Assembly (NCBI RefSeq): GCF_044704955.1 | Contig: NC_091984.1 | Location: 210,924,001-210,988,000, forward strand | DNA: 64,000 nucleotides | Source: Pristiophorus japonicus | Taxonomy: Eukaryota | Direction of reading: 5' to 3' | Shown: positions 13,413 through 43,400 of the stretch, piece after piece | Numbering within the stretch: the first letter of the stretch is position 1 | How the letters are laid out: every line of letters starts with the position of its first letter | Notes under the pieces: model-generated | What the model was told of the DNA's origin: nothing | Seen by the model: the letters and a program-made list of their open reading frames with translations, nothing else | Database searches by the model: none | Position numbers and translations under genes: made by a program

Positions 13413-16400
13413 CTGCAACAAAGAGAAAGGTCAATAGCACAACCGTGTAGGGCCAGAGTTACATATTGCATTGTATTGCAATGGCTGTGCTGCAAGAGCA
13501 TCTTGTAAACTCGAGCTTGTCTGAAACTGCACGCTTACATTAGAAAAATGGTGTGCGCCCATTTCAGTGAGGACATCACATTTCAATGTGCATTAATTAC
13601 ATGAAAATATGCCCATTGAAATATATAACCATTACTTCCAAGAATTATGATTTTAATTAACTCTGAAGGTATTTAAAAAAAGATTTAGTCTTTACAATCA
13701 CATTGGTTTGAAAAAGAGCATTTGGTACTTCATGAACTTAACATTGATCAAACCAGCAGAGCGTTGAATATGAAGCCACTGGGTGATTGTAATCTGCTCA
13801 TTCATACCAGCAGACAAATACAAAAACAGCAAGTGATGAAACACAGCCTCTTCAAACAAAAGGCTCCATTGAATAGCAATGAAGGTGAAAACCACTCTAC
13901 TTCATTAAATTGCATGAATAATCTACTTTGTAATCAGTAATGGTCACAGCTACAGGTTCTTTGAACAGATAGAGGATGTGTGCGAAAGGCACCTGTAGTT
14001 TTATGTAACAAATCCTTTCAAGTAAAAGGATAAAGTAAATACCCAATTTACACTTTGAGGATGCATGAAGATGATTTTTCAACTTGCACAGCACTGATTT
14101 CCAGAGACAAGGCAATAATTGCCTGAAATCTCCCTCTGGACCTCACAATAAATGCAAGAGTGGTTTTCTAATTAGCAAGCAGAAAAGACATGAAAACTGA
14201 AAAGAATGAATAAATTGATGTAAAGAATCAAGTTCATCCCCATAGAGAAGCACACCCTACATAACATTGCTTTGGGATAAGTACCAGGGGTGTTTTACAA
14301 TGGCACTGCTGCATTATTGGTACAAATATTTTTGAACATTCATACTTTACCTGGTGGCTTCGGAATTATGACATTAACCACATAAAATTGGTTCACAAAT
14401 ATTTAAGCAGCAAGTTATACAACATGTTATCAGCTTTGGGAGTGGCTTATGGCCTGTACACAACACTGTTGGAACAATGGTGTCCTGTTGGCACACAGCA
14501 TCAAGTTCAGCTGCTCACCGAGAGGGGGTACCAATTTCCCCTCCCTCATCTCAAAGTTTATGGTAATTAAATGTGGAGTGTTGCAAGCAAGACATGTTGT
14601 ATAAAAAGATAAAGGGATTGATAGTTTGGCCAAAAATGAAACATCCATGATGTCAGGTAACAATGCAATTTGTACTTAAAAAAAAAAATGTAACAACTCT
14701 GTAGCCTCCATCCCCTGTTCAATTTATAATTAATCACAATTCTCAATTTATGAGGAAAAATGATAAATTTTCATGAGAAACACACAGGTCTAAGGAATTC
14801 TGACCACAAATATATTTTTAATTATAATTCATAGTTCAGCTCTTGCAAGTAGCATTGGAGTTTATAACAAAGATAAATCGCAGTGCTAAGAATTTCCTGA
14901 AACCAGAAATAATTTCTTGAAAATAATTTCAGCATCCTCCAAAGCAAATCAAATCCTGAATTTACGACAAAGTTCTAATCAGCTATTTCATTGGGGAGTG
15001 GACGGTAAAAGGCCGATCCAGTCATCATGGGATAGTGAATCAGCGACACTGAAAATAGGCATCAGAAAAAAGCTAGCCAGCAAAGCATAGCAAAAAAGAC
15101 ACTGCACAAGCATAGGGCAAAGAATGGAAGTGGCAAGTTTTTGCAACTGACTAAAATTAAATGAATTGCTAACCTCCAAATCCTGACCCGTAGTACAAAA
15201 CCACCATGGCAGGCATGCAACAAAGGAAAAAAAAACGTAACTATAAAATACTACAGCTTTTCCCCAACAGAAATAGAAAAAAAACCTAATCTTGATTAAT
15301 ATACAAATGGCATGTAGGGACATAACACTGCAAAACATTAACACACAGGGAAGACTACACAATGATGCATATTACAGAACAAGACAAAATAATTTAAACT
15401 AAGATACAAAGTACATTATTGTATTACTAAGTTTAATACTAACAGTAATGAAGTTCACTTCTAAACAGTGGACAATTTAGAAGTACAGTAAGTGGTAAAA
15501 CTGAATTGTATGCAATACATGATGGCCATAGAACATAGAAATGTTACATTCTGAATAATTTTTGAAAGCTAGCAATACAAAGTGTTTCCACTGCCCTGAT
15601 CTTATTCCACCAAGTAGAATGAGAAAAGTTGAGGGGAACCTCTGTATAGTTGCCAATAAATATAGCAGGAATAAGTAATTTGTGAACAGGTTTTGTGATT
15701 CTGTATTGGTTTCTGTTAAATAAACACTAGCAATAAACTGAGTTGCAGTATCTGGAGTACAGTAAAAACACAGCACATCACAAAAGGAAAAAGTACAAAA
15801 TATAGTCCACCCCCACCTTCTCAATAAAATATTCAGCTTTATTACAAAAAAATAAGAATTTCAAATATCAAAGAACAAAGTAAAACTTTTAAAAGTATAA
15901 AAGGAGACACCACAATGTTCAACACTTACCGTGTAATTGGAATTGCCAGGTTGGATCCTTAGCTCTGCCAAAACCCAGATTCCATTGGTCAGTTTTAAGG
16001 ACTGATACAACATATCTTGCCCTTCAACATTCCTCTTTGCAACAGTGAAAATATTATTGCTTTGAAGCTTATTAGTGACTGCATCTGCAAGTTTAGAAAA
16101 CAATCAGCAGCAAACTTTTAATCAAAAAAGTACAAAAACTGGAAAAATACTATTATTCAAACTTAAGTGCGTAAGTTTGCAGCATCAGTATTTAACACCA
16201 AAGAGCTCTGGATCATCAGCATGGAAAATTATTTTAGGTCAGCCTCTATAACTGATTTATATTGGCTAAAAAAAAAAACTGAATAGACACGAGATGCAAA
16301 TTTAAAATGTTGTTTGACTCCTTGGTCATTGCCACAAAGGTTTCAAATTACTGAATATCCGAAAGCAATGCACCATGAAGCAGTGTGATAAACCTCGACC

Positions 16401-34400: not shown

Positions 34401-37400
34401 CAAATGTATCTGGGTTTTTTTGAAAATTTAGTGGGATTTCTTATTAAAATAGGGCTAATTTCAGCTAAAAATTATTGCATTTGAATTAATGTAAATGTAT
34501 TAGTCAGTCAAATGAGTGGCATGTTAGTTTAACTGACAGCAGCTCAAGATATAAATACCTGTAAATATATTTAATTCCTTAATATTCAGGAGGTGCAAAA
34601 TGACATTTGTTACAAAGAAGCGTAAAACATAACAGAAAACCAGCCTATTTTCAATAGGCCACTGGAATGGGAGATACATTGTAGACAACGTGATTATTAG
34701 GACAATCCTACAATCATGGACATGCATTAAAAATGATAGATTTTCAGAGACACCAAAGATAATACAGCTCAGTACAGTCATTTATTTTCTGATGGTGCAC
34801 TTGCAATCTCATGTTTAAATAAGATATATAGCAAGAACGGCATAACATTACTAATCGTATAGTTCACAGCAATTCACCCTGGAATAAAAGTATACAGTAT
34901 GCATATTGCAAAGGAAATAAATGCTTAAAGCTCCTCAGTGGCTAAATACACCACATCTTCATAATTTACATCCTTGGAAAGGAGCAGCAAAAAATCTCAC
35001 AGCAAGTGCGCCCAATTGTTAGTTAGTGTTCCCTGCTATAAAGGAGCATCTGTTAATGTCTGGAGAGAAGAAAACTAGGTTTGTTGTGATGCCCTAAAGT
35101 TATATAGCCTATGATACTAAGCCACTATCTTAAGAAAAGTAGCTTGAGGGGGGTTGGGGCACACACCATGCAAAACATAGCTCATTACCACATTACATGG
35201 AAATGAGAATGCACAAAAGAGCTGTAAAATGACATGTTATAAAGAAGCGTAGTGATACTGAAACCTATCCACAGCACTTATGCATTTTGCATTCACTTGT
35301 CCTGAATGCAAGAGTGCACTTGTCAAATTGCCAATATTTGTTAGTTCACACCTTCATCATTGTGCAATGTTAAGCCAAGATTAACAAGGCACAAGAAAAA
35401 AATGTGCAATTACATTATAAATGCTACATCTTCTAATTCAAATGGCTTCATCAGGTGGTAAACTCACAATTAGCATTATGGAGCATCGTGTACTATAAAC
35501 ACTACCATTAAAACTCCATTATTTTGCATTTAGCAAGTTTAATAGAACCACAAGGACAAAACAGAGTAAAATGGAAATAAAGCATCACTGGGCATATTTA
35601 AAATATCAAACAGTGTTAACTACCAGTAGTTCAAACCAGATTCATTTGTGGTAGATGTAACTATAGAATTTGGCACTTACAAGCAATGTGGTGGTGCTGA
35701 GTGTTAGAGTACTAACACTCAGAGCCACAGAGTGAGGATGAACGCAGGTTTGATTCCTGCTCCACTCAGTTCCTGATATGAGCCATACTGAGTGGGGAGG
35801 TAACCAGTGAAGGCTGTGTCATCTCCCTGCAGGGGGAAGAAAACAAAATCAGAGGGGATAGCCACACCTGGGCAGACACTTGTTTTTCCTCATAACCAGC
35901 TACAGGGGGCATTGGTGTGGGTGCGGGAGCGGGGCAACAGCTGCTCTCAGCAGTGAGGCACCTAGGCCAGATAGTAAGGAGATAGTATAATCTTTCCTTC
36001 TTGGAAAAAGATCAAAAACAAATAAATAATGCTTACAGTTTTAGGTGCCACATAAGAACCAGATGACATGCCTATTCCACCAGCAAGATCAAACAGGTCA
36101 CTTAAGCCGCCTCCAACTGTTGCATTCAAGGATGCTGGCATGACTGCTGGAGTCCCATAGCCAGCACCAATCTGTATGGATAGCAAAAGATAAATTGGTC
36201 ATATTTCACACAGAACGGGCTCAATTTTCCAGTGATGTGTGTCATTTTTTTGGCACAGGCTGCTATTTTTGGCCGAAGTTTAAAAAATTCAAGTTTCCCC
36301 GATCAATTTCCACCAGTGTAACTCAGTTCCGATTTTTTAAAGGTTTTTTTTTTACAGCCAAAGGGGCCGTACACTGCCACCCGCAGCAATTCTGGCCAGT
36401 TAGGCAAGTTTGGCCAGCTGAGTTACTCCAATTCTTCTTAGGTCAGCATATGTGGCCTCTGTAGAAAAACCTTCTGGTGAGGTAAGGAAATCTGCATAGG
36501 CAAGTGCAGCAGATGCCCGGACAGTAGGAGAGGCAAGAGAGAAGGGGAGAGGGAGAAGCCTTTCGGGTATAATTAGTTGGGGACCAGGAGGGAGGAGGCC
36601 ATTCGGCCTGGGATAGGTGCGGCGGAGCAGGCCAGGAGGCCTTTCGGCCTGGGATAGGTGCGGTGGAGCGGGCCGGGAGGCCATTCGGCCTGGGATAGGT
36701 GCGGTGGAGCGGGCCAGGAGGCCATTCGGCCTGGGATAGGTGCGGCGGAGCGGACCGGGCTGGGAGACAGCCAGCCACTCGGCCAGGGCTAGGTGCGGAA
36801 CCAGGAGAGAGAGGAGGCCACTCGGCCAGGGTTAGGTGCGGGACCAGGAGGGAGGAGGCCACTCTGCCAGGGCTAGGTGCGGGAGGCCCTTCGACCTGGG
36901 ATAGCTGCGGATTCCGGCATCAGGGGGTGGGGGTGGGGGTGGGGGAGGGGCACTTTAATAATTTAATGGTGGCAAGTTGTTCCAATGTATTTTAAGCTGC
37001 TTGTAAAGTTGCTGTAATGTATTTTAATGTGCTTGTGCAGGTTGCAGGCTGGTTGTTCCACTTTTTCAGCCTCAGCCCGCATTTGTGTCCCCGTTTACCG
37101 TGGCAACCCGATCTTTTTGGCACAGATCAAAGCTTCACCCCCCAAAACTAAAGGACAGGCTAGGCTGCGCCAAAATGAAGAAATCAAACCGGGAAACTAG
37201 GAACATTTATTTTTGGCGTACTTGGACCCCAAATAAACAGGCGTAACTTTTCAAGTACGCCAAAAAAAAAGCTTTGGGGAAAATTGAACCCTATAAAACT
37301 AGTTGCTTATTTGCTCTTACTCGTGTGCACTTTTGAAAAAGCAAGGCATTATTACAGGTACTTGATCAGTTTATAGATATTGATGTGTACAAATAATTTC

Positions 37401-40400
37401 AATTTGCTATATTTTATGTATATTCGAAAGAGAAAGTCAAAACTCAAGTTACCAAAAAAAGTTATGCGTGAATGTAGTGAGTTATTAAACATTTTTGAAA
37501 TTCAACTATACCCATGTATACTTTTTTTTTTAAAGTATAATATGCATACTTTTTAAAAAAAAATCACAAAACCAATTCTGTCGTAATGGATTGTGGGCTT
37601 TTCCAATGCACTCAAATTAGACTTGACTTGATGAATGGGCCAAATTTAATTTTACCTGATACCACTTTAAAATGGAAATAACCACCTTCACGAATCATGT
37701 AAATTACTAGCAGATGTCATCATGTCACTGCTCATAGTAAGAAGTAGATGCTGTTTCGTAAGGACAGGAACATTAATATATTATGTATTACATCGTGTGT
37801 TCTTGCTACTAAACTGTAGATGTGTTTCAGGACATTACAACATTCCATAGACTCTGGATCAGTTCCTGTGGAGTGGAGGGTAGCCAATGTAACCCCACTT
37901 TTTAAAAAAAAGGAGGGGGAGAGAAAACAGGGAATTATAGACTGGTCAGCCTGACATCGGTAGTGGGTAAAATGATGGAATCAATTACTAAGGATGTCAC
38001 AGCAGCGCATTTGGAAAGAGGTGATATGATGGGTCCAAGTCAGCATGGATTTGTGAAAGGGAAATCATGCTTGACAAATCTTCTGGAATTTTTTGAGGAT
38101 GTTTCCAGTAGAGTGGACAAGGGAGAACCAGCTGTTGTGGTGTATTTGGAATCAGAAGGCTTTCGACAAGGTCCCACACAAGAGATTAATGTGCAAAGTT
38201 AAAGCACATGGGATTGGGGGTAGTGTGCTGACATGGATTGAGAACTGGTTGGCAGACAGGAAGCAAAGAGTAGGAATAAATGGGGACTTTTCAGAATGGC
38301 AGGCTGTGACTAATGGGGTACTGCAAGGTTCTGTGCTGGGGCCCCAGCTGTTTACATTGTACATTAATGATTTGGACGAGGGGATTAAATGTATCTCCAA
38401 ATTTGCGGATGACACTAAGTTGGGTGGCAGTGTGAGCTGCGAGGAGGATGCTGAGGCTGCAGAGTGACTTGGATAGGTTAGGTGAGTGGGCAAATGCATG
38501 GCAGATGAAGTATAATGTGGATAAATGTGAGGTTATCCACTTTGGTTGTAAAAACAGAGAGACAGACTATTATCTGAATGGTGACAGATTAGGTAAAGGG
38601 GAGGTGCAACGAGACCTGGGTGTCATGGTACATCAGTTATTGAAGGTTGGCATGCAGGTACAGCAGGCGGTTAAGAAAGCAAATGGCATGTTGGGCCTTC
38701 ATAGCGAGGGGATTTGAGTACAGGGGCAGGGAAGTGTTACTACAGTTGTACAGGGCCTTGGTGAGGCCACACCTGGAGTATTGTGTACAGTTTTGGTCGC
38801 CTAACCTGAGGAAGGACATTCTTGCTATTGAGAGAGTGCAGCGAAGGTTCACCAGTCTGATTCCTGGGATGGCGGGACAGACATATCAAAAAAGACTGGG
38901 CTTGTATTCACTGGAGTTCAGAAGAATGAGAAGGGATCTCATAGAAACGTTTAAAATTCTGACAGGTTAGATGCAGGAAGAATGTTCCCAATGTTGGGGA
39001 AGTCCAGAACCAGGGGTCACAGTCTAAGGATAAGGGGTAAGCCATTTAGGACCGAGATGAGGAGAAACTTCTTCACCCAGAGAGTGGTGAACCTGTGGAA
39101 TTCTCTACCACAGAAAGTTGTTGAGGCCAATTCACTAAATATATTCAAAAAGGAGTTAGATGAAGTCCTTACTACTAGGGGGATCAAGGGGTATGGCGAG
39201 AAAGCAGGAATAGGGTACTGAAGTTGCATGTTCAGCCATGAACTCATTGAATGGCAGTGCAGGCTCGAAGGGCCGAATGGCCTACTCCTGCACCTATTTT
39301 CTATGTTTCTATTACAATGTGTAATTGCCCTGCATTCTTGAATCAATGTTTGCATCAGTTACAGTTCAACCTGGCTTTCTTTACCCTTTTAAAAAAAAAG
39401 TGTTTAAGACCATAAAGTAAACTGTTAAGAATCAAGGCTGATGTGAACAAGAGTTCAACACTTTTTTTTTCTGGTCAGGGGATTGTGCAGACAGAAAGTG
39501 TGTTCGTTTCTGTTGTAGATCAGAAGCAAACAGTAAGTCTTGGGATTTTTTTTCTCTTTTTACAAAAAAAAGTGTGCATGTGGCATATCATTTTTCATAT
39601 ATTTGTGAAAGATATGCAACTTACTGCTGGACTTCCACTTAGATCTCCACCAAGCTAAAAAAAAGAGAAACATAAAATAGTTTGGTTACACAATGCATAT
39701 GAAAATAAAAATGATAAGTGCAAATATTATCCTAACATCTAAAACATTGATTTTCTCCACCAATAAGTTCAAATTATTGGAACTAGTGTGATAAGTTATT
39801 ATACAATCCATAAAACTATAATTAGCCTGCAATTTTAACTTAAAAACAAAAATCAACAGCCAAAAGGACAGAGGATCATACCCCTTCAGTCTCATCGCCC
39901 ATCTCCAGACACGAATACGCAAAGACAGAGGCAACGCAAGGACATTCACATGCAAGCAGAAGTGGAGTGAAAAAAAAGGAACAGCATAAATTCAAAGAAG
40001 AAAACACAGCATTAGTATACGTACATCAGCTATAGCTACTAAAAGCATATTAACTAAAAGGAAACATTAATTCAGTGTTGACTCAACAATGTCAAGTGTA
40101 CAATATTTCAGTGCATCTGTTGAATTTTTAAAGTTCTGTAATTTGTTAAAGCAGCTTGACATAACTGTTAAAATCTAAATGTCAACATACCAGCGATAGA
40201 TAACTATTAGCTAAGGCAACATTGGAAAAGAGGAGGTAAAATATTCTACAAAAACAATGAAAGTAAGTTGATTAATAATGTGTTCTAATTATTACATTGA
40301 AGACTTTTACGAAAATGTTGGACAGATGAAATTTAAAAAGTTATTCTGCTTTTAAGTCCTATGCAAATGTTACGCTCCAGAAATTCGAAGAGAGACTAAA

Positions 40401-43400
40401 ATCCTGAATAAACACTGCAACCAAATAAAAAACTAGTTAAAACTGACAGGTGCACTGACAATTTCTGGAAAAGGTTGAAAACTGAAAAGCTGAGAGCCCT
40501 GCAGTATTTGCCTACCAAACTGTCTAATCCACCACCAAGAAGGTCCATGGCTCCCATCTGAACTGTTGAAGAGGGGATCGGGGGAACACTGACTGGAGGA
40601 CCAAGGTCGAGATTCAGCAGATCACCCAAAAGATCACCCTGGGATGGAATGACGGCAGGTTGCTGCTCAGTAGGCTGTGCTGCAGCTGAAGGGGCAACAT
40701 CTGGACTCTCGGTACTTTCATTTCTAAGAGAGAACAGAGAATTGCAGGAAACTAGACATAGTATTGACACTATTGACATTACTGGGGAACAAAGTAGTAT
40801 CTTACATTTCTACTGCACTCCTCACAAGCAGGAAGGAGGGGGCAAAAAGTACAGATTCTGAAAGCAAGGAGGAAGATACTAAAGCAGAGATATAAAAGGA
40901 GGGGGATTCAGAAGATGGGAGTGTAAGTAGCTGAAGGCAGTGAGATAATAAGTCTGAAGCAAGTACCTACAGTGGCACAGAATGTTCTTTATTTCACAAT
41001 TCCCGATCTCAATCTAGTTGCTTGAGAAAGGTGTGAAGCAGTAGTTCGGCAAAATGAATGTTAAATAAACAAACATTGGGTGAGTCAAACTATAGCATTT
41101 TCTGGAGCCTGGTGCGAATGAACAAGAGATTTAGGAAAAAGTTATAAGAACATAAGAAATAGGACATAAGAACATAAGTAAGATCACGACTGATCTGATG
41201 ATCATGGAATCAGCTCCCATTCCCTGCCCGCTCCTCATAACCCTTTATTCCCTTATCACTCAAAAATCTGTCCATCTCCGCCTTAAATATATTCAATGAC
41301 CCAGCCTCCACAGCTCTCTGGTGCAGAGAATTCTATAGGTTTACAACCCTTAGAAGAAATTCCTCCTTAGTTCTAAATGGGTAACCCCTTATTCTTAAAC
41401 TATGCCTCCTAGTTCAAGATTCCCCTACGAGTGGAAATATCCTCTCTGCATCTACCTTGCGAGCCCTCTCATTATCTTTCAATAAGATCACCTCTCATTC
41501 TTCTGAACTCCAATGAGTATAGGCCCAACCTTTCATAAGTCAACCCCTTCATCTCAGGAATCAACCTCGTGAACTTTCTCTGAACTGCCTCCGATGCAAG
41601 TATATCCCTCCTTAAATGAGATCAATGGTCTCACCAATACCCTGTACAGTTGTAGCAGGATTTCTCTGCTTTTATACTCCATCTCCCTTGCAATAAAGGC
41701 CAACATTCCATTTGCATTCCTGATTACTTGCTGTACCTGCATACCAACGGAGTTTCACGCACAAGGATCCCCCAAGGTCCCTCTGCACTGCAGCATTTTG
41801 TAATTTTTCTCCATTTAAATAAGCGCTTTTTTATCTTTTCTGCCAAAGTGGATAACCTCACATTTTCCCACATTATATTCCATCTGCCAAATTTTTCCCT
41901 CTCTTAGCCTGTCTAAATCCCTTTGCAGATTTTGTGTCCTCCTCACAGATCATCAGATCAGCCATGATCTTCCTCCTCACAACTTGCCTTCCCAAACATC
42001 TTTGTATTATCAGCAAACTTGGCTACATTACACTCGGTTCCTTCATCTAAGTCATTAATATAGATGTAAATAGTTGAGGCCCCAGCACCAATCTCTGTGG
42101 CACCCCACTAGTTACTGTTTGCCAACCGGAAAATGACTCATTCATCCCGACTCTGTTTTCTGTTAGTTAGGGGAAGTCCAGAACCAGGGGTCACAGTCTA
42201 AAGATAAGGGGTAAGCCATTTGGCAGGTGGAATATAATGTGGGAAAATGTGAGGTTATCCACTTTGGCAGAAAAGATAAAAAAGCTTATATTTAAATGGA
42301 GAAAAATTACAAAATGCTGCAGTACAGAGGGACCTTGGGGGGTCCTTGTGCATGAAACTCCGTTGGTATGCAGGTACAGGAAGTAATCAGGAATGCAAAT
42401 GAGATGAGGAGAAACTTCTTCACTCAGAATTGTGAACCTGTGGAATTCTCTACCACAGAAAGTTGTTGAGGCCAGTTCATTAGATATATTCAAAAGGGAG
42501 TTAGATGTGGCCCTTACGGCTAAAGGGATCAAGGGGTATGGAGAGAAAGCAGGAATGGGGTACTGAAGTTGCATGATCAGCTATGATCCTATTGAATGGT
42601 GGTGCAGGCTCGAAGGGCCGAATGGCCTACTCCTGCACCTATTTTCTATGTTTCTATGTTAGCCAATCCGTATTGGGCAAACACAAGGACTGAACAGAAA
42701 TGCACAAATTGGAGTTGAAAACAAACTGTTAAAGAACTTGACAACATAGGGGGAAAAAAAAAGTTTAGCTTATGCACAATCCTTCAGTTAAAGGTCCTTC
42801 ATAATCACTAAGTCAGGCAAATTTTGCACATTAAATGGGTTTATTACACAAGATGACAGTGACAGAGATTGCTCTTCTTTTCATTGAGTAGGTCCTACAC
42901 ATTACCAAGCTCCAGTTGTGTGATGACCCAGATGTACCTCAAGCTTTAAAGATCTGGCTGGTTTGAGAAAGCAGAAATTAATGCCCCAAGAGTTGTATTA
43001 ATTTGCCCGGAGCACAATGTTGGAGAAAGGAAAGTTAGGTAGAATCTTTGAAATTTTCACTTACGATCCAGATCGTGGCGGCAGCCTCTTGTGCTGAACA
43101 CCTCTGCTGCCTTCCACAAATGCACTGGGTGGCTTATGGTATACAGAGGCCAGTGTTCCTATGTGGCAAATTAATTCATCAAGGAGGGTTGGTTCTATTA
43201 GGTCAGTTTCTTCTGAAATCAAGGGTTTCTCTGCCAATACAACTTCCTTTGCTGCCACTGGATCTGTAGAAAGTAGACGCCAGTATATGTAGCCACGGTC
43301 TCTCAGATCAGGGTTGTCAGAATCCTGCAATATCAAAGATATCACTGAAACAGTAATTATGTCCAAGGTACAGATCAATGGTCGTGGTACACAATACTTT

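Follow-up and report, generated by a model that had tools for sequence, protein, structure and literature searches.

The hinge of beta-1 adaptin in the sawshark Pristiophorus japonicus raises a threefold question: are the two very short exons lying side by side after its clathrin-box exon (here exons A and B) genuine, in which combinations are they used, and how do they relate to the hinge exons of the paralogue AP2B1? The explanation that we favor, with a probability of roughly 0.78, is that both are spliced exons, B being included in all transcripts seen and A likely a nerve/retina microexon controlled by SRRM3/4, and that both likely derive from a cassette older than the duplication separating the two paralogues.

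Two spliced exons in the AP1B1 hinge

The window (the entire 64,000-nucleotide stretch of DNA analyzed here) carries P. japonicus AP1B1 (beta-1 adaptin) on its minus strand. Residues 321-956 of P0002, the sawshark AP-1 complex subunit beta-1 isoform X2, match it one exon after another, with 100% identity in the exon at 40723-40516, and in a tree built with the hinge removed P0002 falls on the AP1B1 side of a split supported at 100/100. The genome yielded two beta-adaptin matches, namely the window gene on contig C8 and its paralogue AP2B1 on C16. The initial annotation had described two in-frame phase-0 microexons 227 nt apart, directly after the exon encoding LLNLD, and this layout is borne out by both coordinates and contig joints (Table 1). 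The 30-nt exon B exceeds the 3-27 nt range that defines the microexon class in PMC12626424. The reading frame stays open in all four combinations of A and B. However, the 4,344-nt hinge intron contains 71 open phase-0 candidates of 12-51 nt bounded by AG and GT, and splice signals by themselves are therefore weak evidence for the two exons.

Table 1. Hinge features of sawshark AP1B1 in window coordinates, and of the paralogue AP2B1 in contig coordinates
Feature	Coordinates	Strand	Basis
AP1B1 hinge exon with arrestin-box LLGDL and clathrin-box LLNLD, ends in phase 0	40516..40723	-	translation; 100% identical to P0002; contig cover
Exon A acceptor region: weak GAG site, 129 nt without another AG, pyrimidine tract shifted upstream, 5 TGC within 60 nt	39903..40031	-	
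Exon A, 21 nt, MGDETEG, phase 0, AG before and GT after, alternative	39882..39902	-	in X18 and X5, out in X19 and X20
A-B intron, 227 nt	39655..39881	-	sequence and contig joints
Exon B, 30 nt, phase 0, AG/GT flanks, strong TAG acceptor	39625..39654	-	in all shark transcripts seen
Downstream hinge exon IGAGYG...APKT, leads to appendage domain	36037..36171	-	sequence, P0002 match, contig joints
AP2B1 exon A-type candidate, 18 nt, MGDAER	G000:C16 55825228-55825211		intron search
AP2B1 exon B-type, 42 nt, LGGDLGGPTGGSPA	G000:C16 55816041-55816000		intron search

Contigs from four of the 23 listed sequencing runs (X5, X18, X19 and X20) were mapped on positions 36000-40800 of the window. These runs are assembled contigs with no tissue or RNA label on record, from which assembly drops rare forms, and a contig joint is read here as the presence of a form and as a measure of neither absence nor level. 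Contigs of X18 and X5 contain the joints 40516-39902, 39882-39654 and 39625-36171, which together make up an A+B form, and those of X19 and X20 contain the joints 40516-39654 and 39625-36171 of a B-only form. At the junctions named in the initial annotation (40516/39902/39654/36171), the 30-nt exon is joined in all four runs, each of which has the joint from B to 36171. Such exact splice joints rule out A and B being artefacts or chance exons. Furthermore, the contigs of X18-X20 cover the two long exons without differing letters and leave the unique intron stretch 40025-40507 uncovered, as expected of spliced RNA. Exons A and B are really spliced in shark AP1B1, in an A+B and a B-only form; B, found in every transcript seen, would be the fixed member of the pair and A the optional one. 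The intron downstream of B contains a high-copy repeat (37771-39380 of the window), over which contigs of each of the four runs pile up to very great depth.

A pair shared by AP1B1 and AP2B1

We tallied the two exons, scored by pattern, in named long AP1B1 records grouped by hand from several searches, among them three homologue searches that listed the best 120 of 920, 915 and 209 matches; the tallies exclude unnamed and short records, count isoforms rather than species, and come from searches that favor some forms. The 28 chondrichthyan NCBI/UniParc records listed comprise eight with A+B and 20 with B. Five UniProt models of chimaera AP1B1 are without B, and the chimaera RefSeq record P0125 has it. 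Among the non-teleost ray-finned fish records listed (n = 22) we counted eight with A+B, ten with B and four with neither, and among those of teleosts (n = 61) 55 with A+B, four with B and two scored as A-only in which B is present on inspection. Coelacanth and lungfish contribute five records with B and one with A (n = 6), and turtles and crocodiles two with A+B, six with B and two with neither (n = 10). All nine listed amphibian records, from caecilians and salamanders, have B only; A, which is present in frog AP2B1, may have been lost here once more or may be missing from the annotation. The 74 bird records listed divide into 23 with A+B, nine with B, seven with A, 32 with neither and three unscored; since birds are annotated with all four states, B is not constitutive everywhere. 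No B was found in the listed records of snakes (0 of 20, with A in eight) or of placental mammals (0 of 92, with A in 46).

Shark AP1B1 proteins are annotated with the same peptides as exons A and B of the window. The RefSeq isoforms X1 (A+B) and X2 (B only) of sharks, rays, sturgeon, gar, bowfin, teleosts, turtles and birds carry identical or near-identical peptides (P0131, P0003, P0002) and do not differ from the window exons; their annotation leaves the homology across paralogues unstated. Neither exon is new, and going by annotated proteins jawed-vertebrate AP1B1 commonly has the A+B pair, which is no shark peculiarity. The initial annotation had thought this lineage special in keeping both exons, which does not agree with A+B forms annotated for AP1B1 in sharks, rays, sturgeon, gar, bowfin, teleosts, turtle, crocodile and birds; its fallback of 'real but not new' is the apt description of the exons, given that fish AP1B1 annotation has both.

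The hinge intron of sawshark AP2B1 spans 32,307 nt and, compared with exons A and B, yielded one counterpart of each (Table 1), 9.2 kb apart. Exon B is identical to the 42-nt AP2B1 exon at 25 of 30 nt, the best of 984 candidates (score 35.5, the next being 20.0), and exon A to the 18-nt exon at 14 of 18 nt, again the best of 984 (22.0, the next being 12.5). The MGDAER exon had been selected on the DNA sequence before the same six residues were seen in isoform X1 of sawfish AP2B1 (P0487), where they precede the peptide of the 42-nt exon. For sawshark AP2B1, the evidence that the two exons are spliced comes from proteins annotated in other cartilaginous fish. In sturgeon, gar, bowfin, lungfish and two frogs, AP2B1 records have MGEDTQW together with B. 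Exon A was detected in one of 15 chondrichthyan, three of five non-teleost ray-finned fish, one of one lungfish and two of nine amphibian AP2B1 records listed, in none of 66 from teleosts and in none of 95 from amniotes (four unscored); the mammalian records listed have B only. A bird AP2B1 model (P0519) with an insert starting in MG was not counted as A: it is without acidic residues and without B, and looks like a modelling artefact.

The exons correspond in architecture as well. Homologous exons occupy a matching position and phase in both paralogues, for A and B alike. Both A exons precede B in phase 0, start with MG and an acidic residue, and have a GAG acceptor with a long region free of AG and an upstream-displaced pyrimidine tract, which in AP2B1 lies at -80..-46 in the same layout as in AP1B1; both B exons have ordinary acceptors. 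The 14-residue AP2B1 exon shares with shark AP1B1 exon B the junction, the phase and the pattern L-G-x-D-L...G-S-P-A. However, B of shark AP1B1 has ten residues and is in all transcripts seen, whereas for the AP2B1 exon sharks and rays have annotated forms with and without it (953 versus 939 aa), as its human counterpart distinguishes a long 951 from a short 937 isoform (PMC8488560). Given that some AP2B1 records carry an AP-1 beta label, the tree without the hinge served to sort them; in it 17 AP1 and 13 AP2 proteins (30 selected, midpoint root, no outgroup) separate at 100/100, and each side includes A+B forms. P0399, P0480, P0512 and P0516 are such records, labelled AP-1 beta at source and placed with AP2B1 in the tree. 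Short CCCCGGGGCG-type units, GC-rich and arranged in a long tandem array, also occupy part of the AP2B1 hinge intron on C16 (L003 4000-5760).

Origin and losses of the pair

The simplest history for these matches is likely a pre-duplication origin of both A and B as one ancestral cassette, which both paralogues would have inherited. Human AP1B1 and AP2B1 lie on paralogous regions (PMC13676984), and the paralogous expansion of endocytic genes has been placed in the vertebrate ancestor (PMC4824007). The proposal in the initial annotation that the B-type exon is homologous to the AP2B1 hinge exon and likely predates the duplication is upheld by the match over 25 of 30 nt. By naming B alone as ancestral it understated the case, as A is also found in AP2B1 (seven records and this genome), and the ancestor therefore likely had both. 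Placental AP1B1 records have only A, as it had stated for mammals, and mammalian AP2B1 records only B. The end state in mammals is thus reciprocal, as it had supposed, but a single mammalian event does not fit: the AP2B1 records of reptiles and birds are already without A, and those of snake AP1B1 are likewise without B. Instead, B would have been dropped from AP1B1 in placental mammals and snakes, and A from AP2B1 in amniotes and teleosts. These losses, read from annotated proteins rather than genomes and from AP1B1 records sampled without marsupial, monotreme, lizard or frog, were likely recurrent and of differing dates.

Two alternatives bear on this history and on how the pair is used. The initial annotation had allowed up to four hinge isoforms, and free combination of A and B into four sawshark forms would be compatible with the four open frames, the bird annotations with all four states and the chimaera UniProt models without B. 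We nevertheless consider it improbable, as only two forms are seen in shark contigs (A-only and skip-both joints are absent among the 15 joints listed for the four runs, 43 more being unlisted), B is present in 28 of 28 chondrichthyan NCBI/UniParc AP1B1 records including P0125, and the acceptor of exon B is strong. We likewise give little credence to the view that B alone is ancestral and that A arose after the duplication, either twice independently or once, with an early gene conversion then carrying it across to the second paralogue. In favor of this view, A is so short that its similarity (14/18 nt) has modest statistical weight, the hinge gains exons easily, as seen from the inserts of percomorphs, electric ray, bowfin and paddlefish and from a 66-nt zebrafish retinal exon, and the sequences compared include no pre-duplication outgroup: the best 120 of 920, 915 and 209 homologue matches include no cyclostome or invertebrate name, and a representative-protein search (109 matches, mostly short genomic frames ending at the exon donor) provided no outgroup hinge. 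Against this stand the placement of A before B in both genes with the same phase, MG[DE] start and GAG acceptor, its presence in cartilaginous and bony fish on both paralogue branches, and the location of the paralogues on separate contigs (C8 versus C16).

Among the hinge inserts themselves (records P0473, P0663-P0676, P0145, P0292, P0485), that of percomorph AP1B1 consists of 29 Pro/Ser-rich residues between A and B, that of the electric ray of 17 residues after B, and bowfin and paddlefish AP2B1 have further inserts at the hinge junction, where the 66-nt zebrafish retina exon (DreEX0013674) also lies. We found no homologues of the ray, percomorph, bowfin or paddlefish inserts in the hinge intron of shark AP1B1.

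Alternative exons may be split between duplicated genes, a form of subfunctionalisation of splice forms. The pre-duplication cassette resembles this in that mammals retain A in AP1B1 and B in AP2B1. It differs in that both paralogues would have kept both exons for long and the losses would be late, unequal in date and repeated, and there was accordingly no clean split at the duplication. In the open papers that made up the literature searched, we found no description of a cross-paralogue A+B cassette with staggered, repeated losses. The exons themselves are known, A and B being annotated and the 21-nt ap1b1 exon catalogued as neural/retinal and srrm3-dependent in zebrafish with a human orthologue, and there is therefore little gain for annotation; the addition made here, that A+B is shared by both paralogues, is a modest evolutionary note of a known kind. 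The mammalian AP1B1 neural microexon and the AP2B1 long/short exon now look like halves of one older cassette that is whole in both shark genes. A would be one more neural microexon that is likely older than the vertebrate duplications and was lost more than once from one paralogue.

Hinge properties and regulation of exon A

The adaptor hinge is unstructured and, together with the appendage, contacts clathrin at two points, and endocytosis requires both the clathrin box and the appendage (PMC8488560). Exons A and B sit in the linker between the two; the clathrin box and arrestin box are encoded in the upstream exon and are kept in all four forms. Inclusion of A lengthens the linker from 85 to 92 residues, adds three acidic residues and shifts its net charge from -4 to -7 (P0002 versus P0131). 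B contributes an SP site, and its direct junction with the upstream exon yields an SLL, which the inclusion of A interrupts. A motif scan of the four forms with clathrin-motif consensus patterns taken from PMC5182127 detected no new L-phi-x-phi-[DE] or [LI][LI]GxL motif. The most likely effect on the protein, judged from sequence, is a tuning of spacing and charge, by which the exons would modestly adjust the reach and charge of the neuronal two-point contact and would not act as an on/off switch. As naturally occurring variants, the forms lend themselves to tests of the effect of hinge length and charge on the assembly of clathrin coats.

Clathrin assembly is aided by (D/S)LL motifs. On a minority reading the cassette would be a clathrin-binding switch, in which the joint of B to the upstream exon supplies an extra SLL and A, by breaking it, weakens clathrin assembly in neurons. 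The SLL is found in the B-only form alone, all 167 pattern-matched records that skip A and include B have an S/T-L-L junction, and short hinge peptides bind clathrin in a degenerate manner (PMC5182127). Yet the shark junction fits neither the clathrin-box nor the arrestin-box consensus, every form retains three DLL motifs along with the two canonical ones, and AP1B1 of mammals and snakes manages without B; we regard such a switch as unlikely. An extension of it, in which the ancestral single beta-adaptin already had a hinge switch with A breaking the dileucine clathrin contact of B, sharks run it in both AP-1 and AP-2, and it was lost from AP-2 independently in amniotes and teleosts and from AP-1 in mammals and snakes, appears to us equally doubtful.

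SRRM3/4 microexons typically have a weak acceptor, a pyrimidine tract shifted upstream and UGC motifs. The exon A acceptor combines its GAG site with a 129-nt AG-free zone and five nearby TGC (Table 1); the AP2B1 downstream exon has as many, and the TGC count by itself is thus not discriminating. Exon A also has the size and behavior of a microexon, being 21 nt long, frame-preserving, and included in two of the four runs and left out in two. Exon B does not have the features of an SRRM3/4 microexon, with its 30 nt, its presence in four of four runs and 28 of 28 records and its strong TAG acceptor; in shark AP1B1 it has the behavior of a short but ordinary exon.

In zebrafish, the 21-nt ap1b1 exon DreEX0013673 is a conserved neural microexon with a neural dPSI of +33.3, which falls by 62.6 (dPSI -62.6) in the srrm3 eMIC mutant; its human orthologue HsaEX0004866 has a neural dPSI of +78.2 and hardly responds to eMIC overexpression (dPSI +1.87; PMC12626424). 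A second study gives the zebrafish 21-nt event a PSI of 77.2 in retina versus 2.2 in other tissues, with a drop from 65.5 to 2.9 in srrm3 mutant eyes (PMC9303857). By gene, length and the teleost MGDESEP peptide rather than by coordinates, DreEX0013673 is likely exon A. It and HsaEX0004866 match shark A in gene, length, optional use and the acidic seven-residue hinge insert; shark A differs in preceding an exon B, mammalian AP1B1 records being without B. The zebrafish data and the acceptor layout make it likely, by analogy, that A is also switched on by SRRM3/4 as a nerve/retina microexon in the shark. The supplement files searched for PMC12626424 and PMC9303857 have no ap2b1 row, which fits the A-less teleost AP2B1 records, and those searched for PMC12626420 and PMC12868881 have neither AP1B1 nor AP2B1 rows. 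The SRRM4 inclusion list of PMC7935315 has an AP1B1 event other than the human orthologue of A; a human AP1B1 9-nt event, HsaEX0004865, gains 45 PSI with SRRM4 (PMC7935315). Its likely orthologue in the window is a 9-nt exon encoding DLE in the AP1B1 appendage (15174-15182, minus strand), which has a TGC-rich upstream region and is present in the shark protein P0126 and the primate protein P0181.
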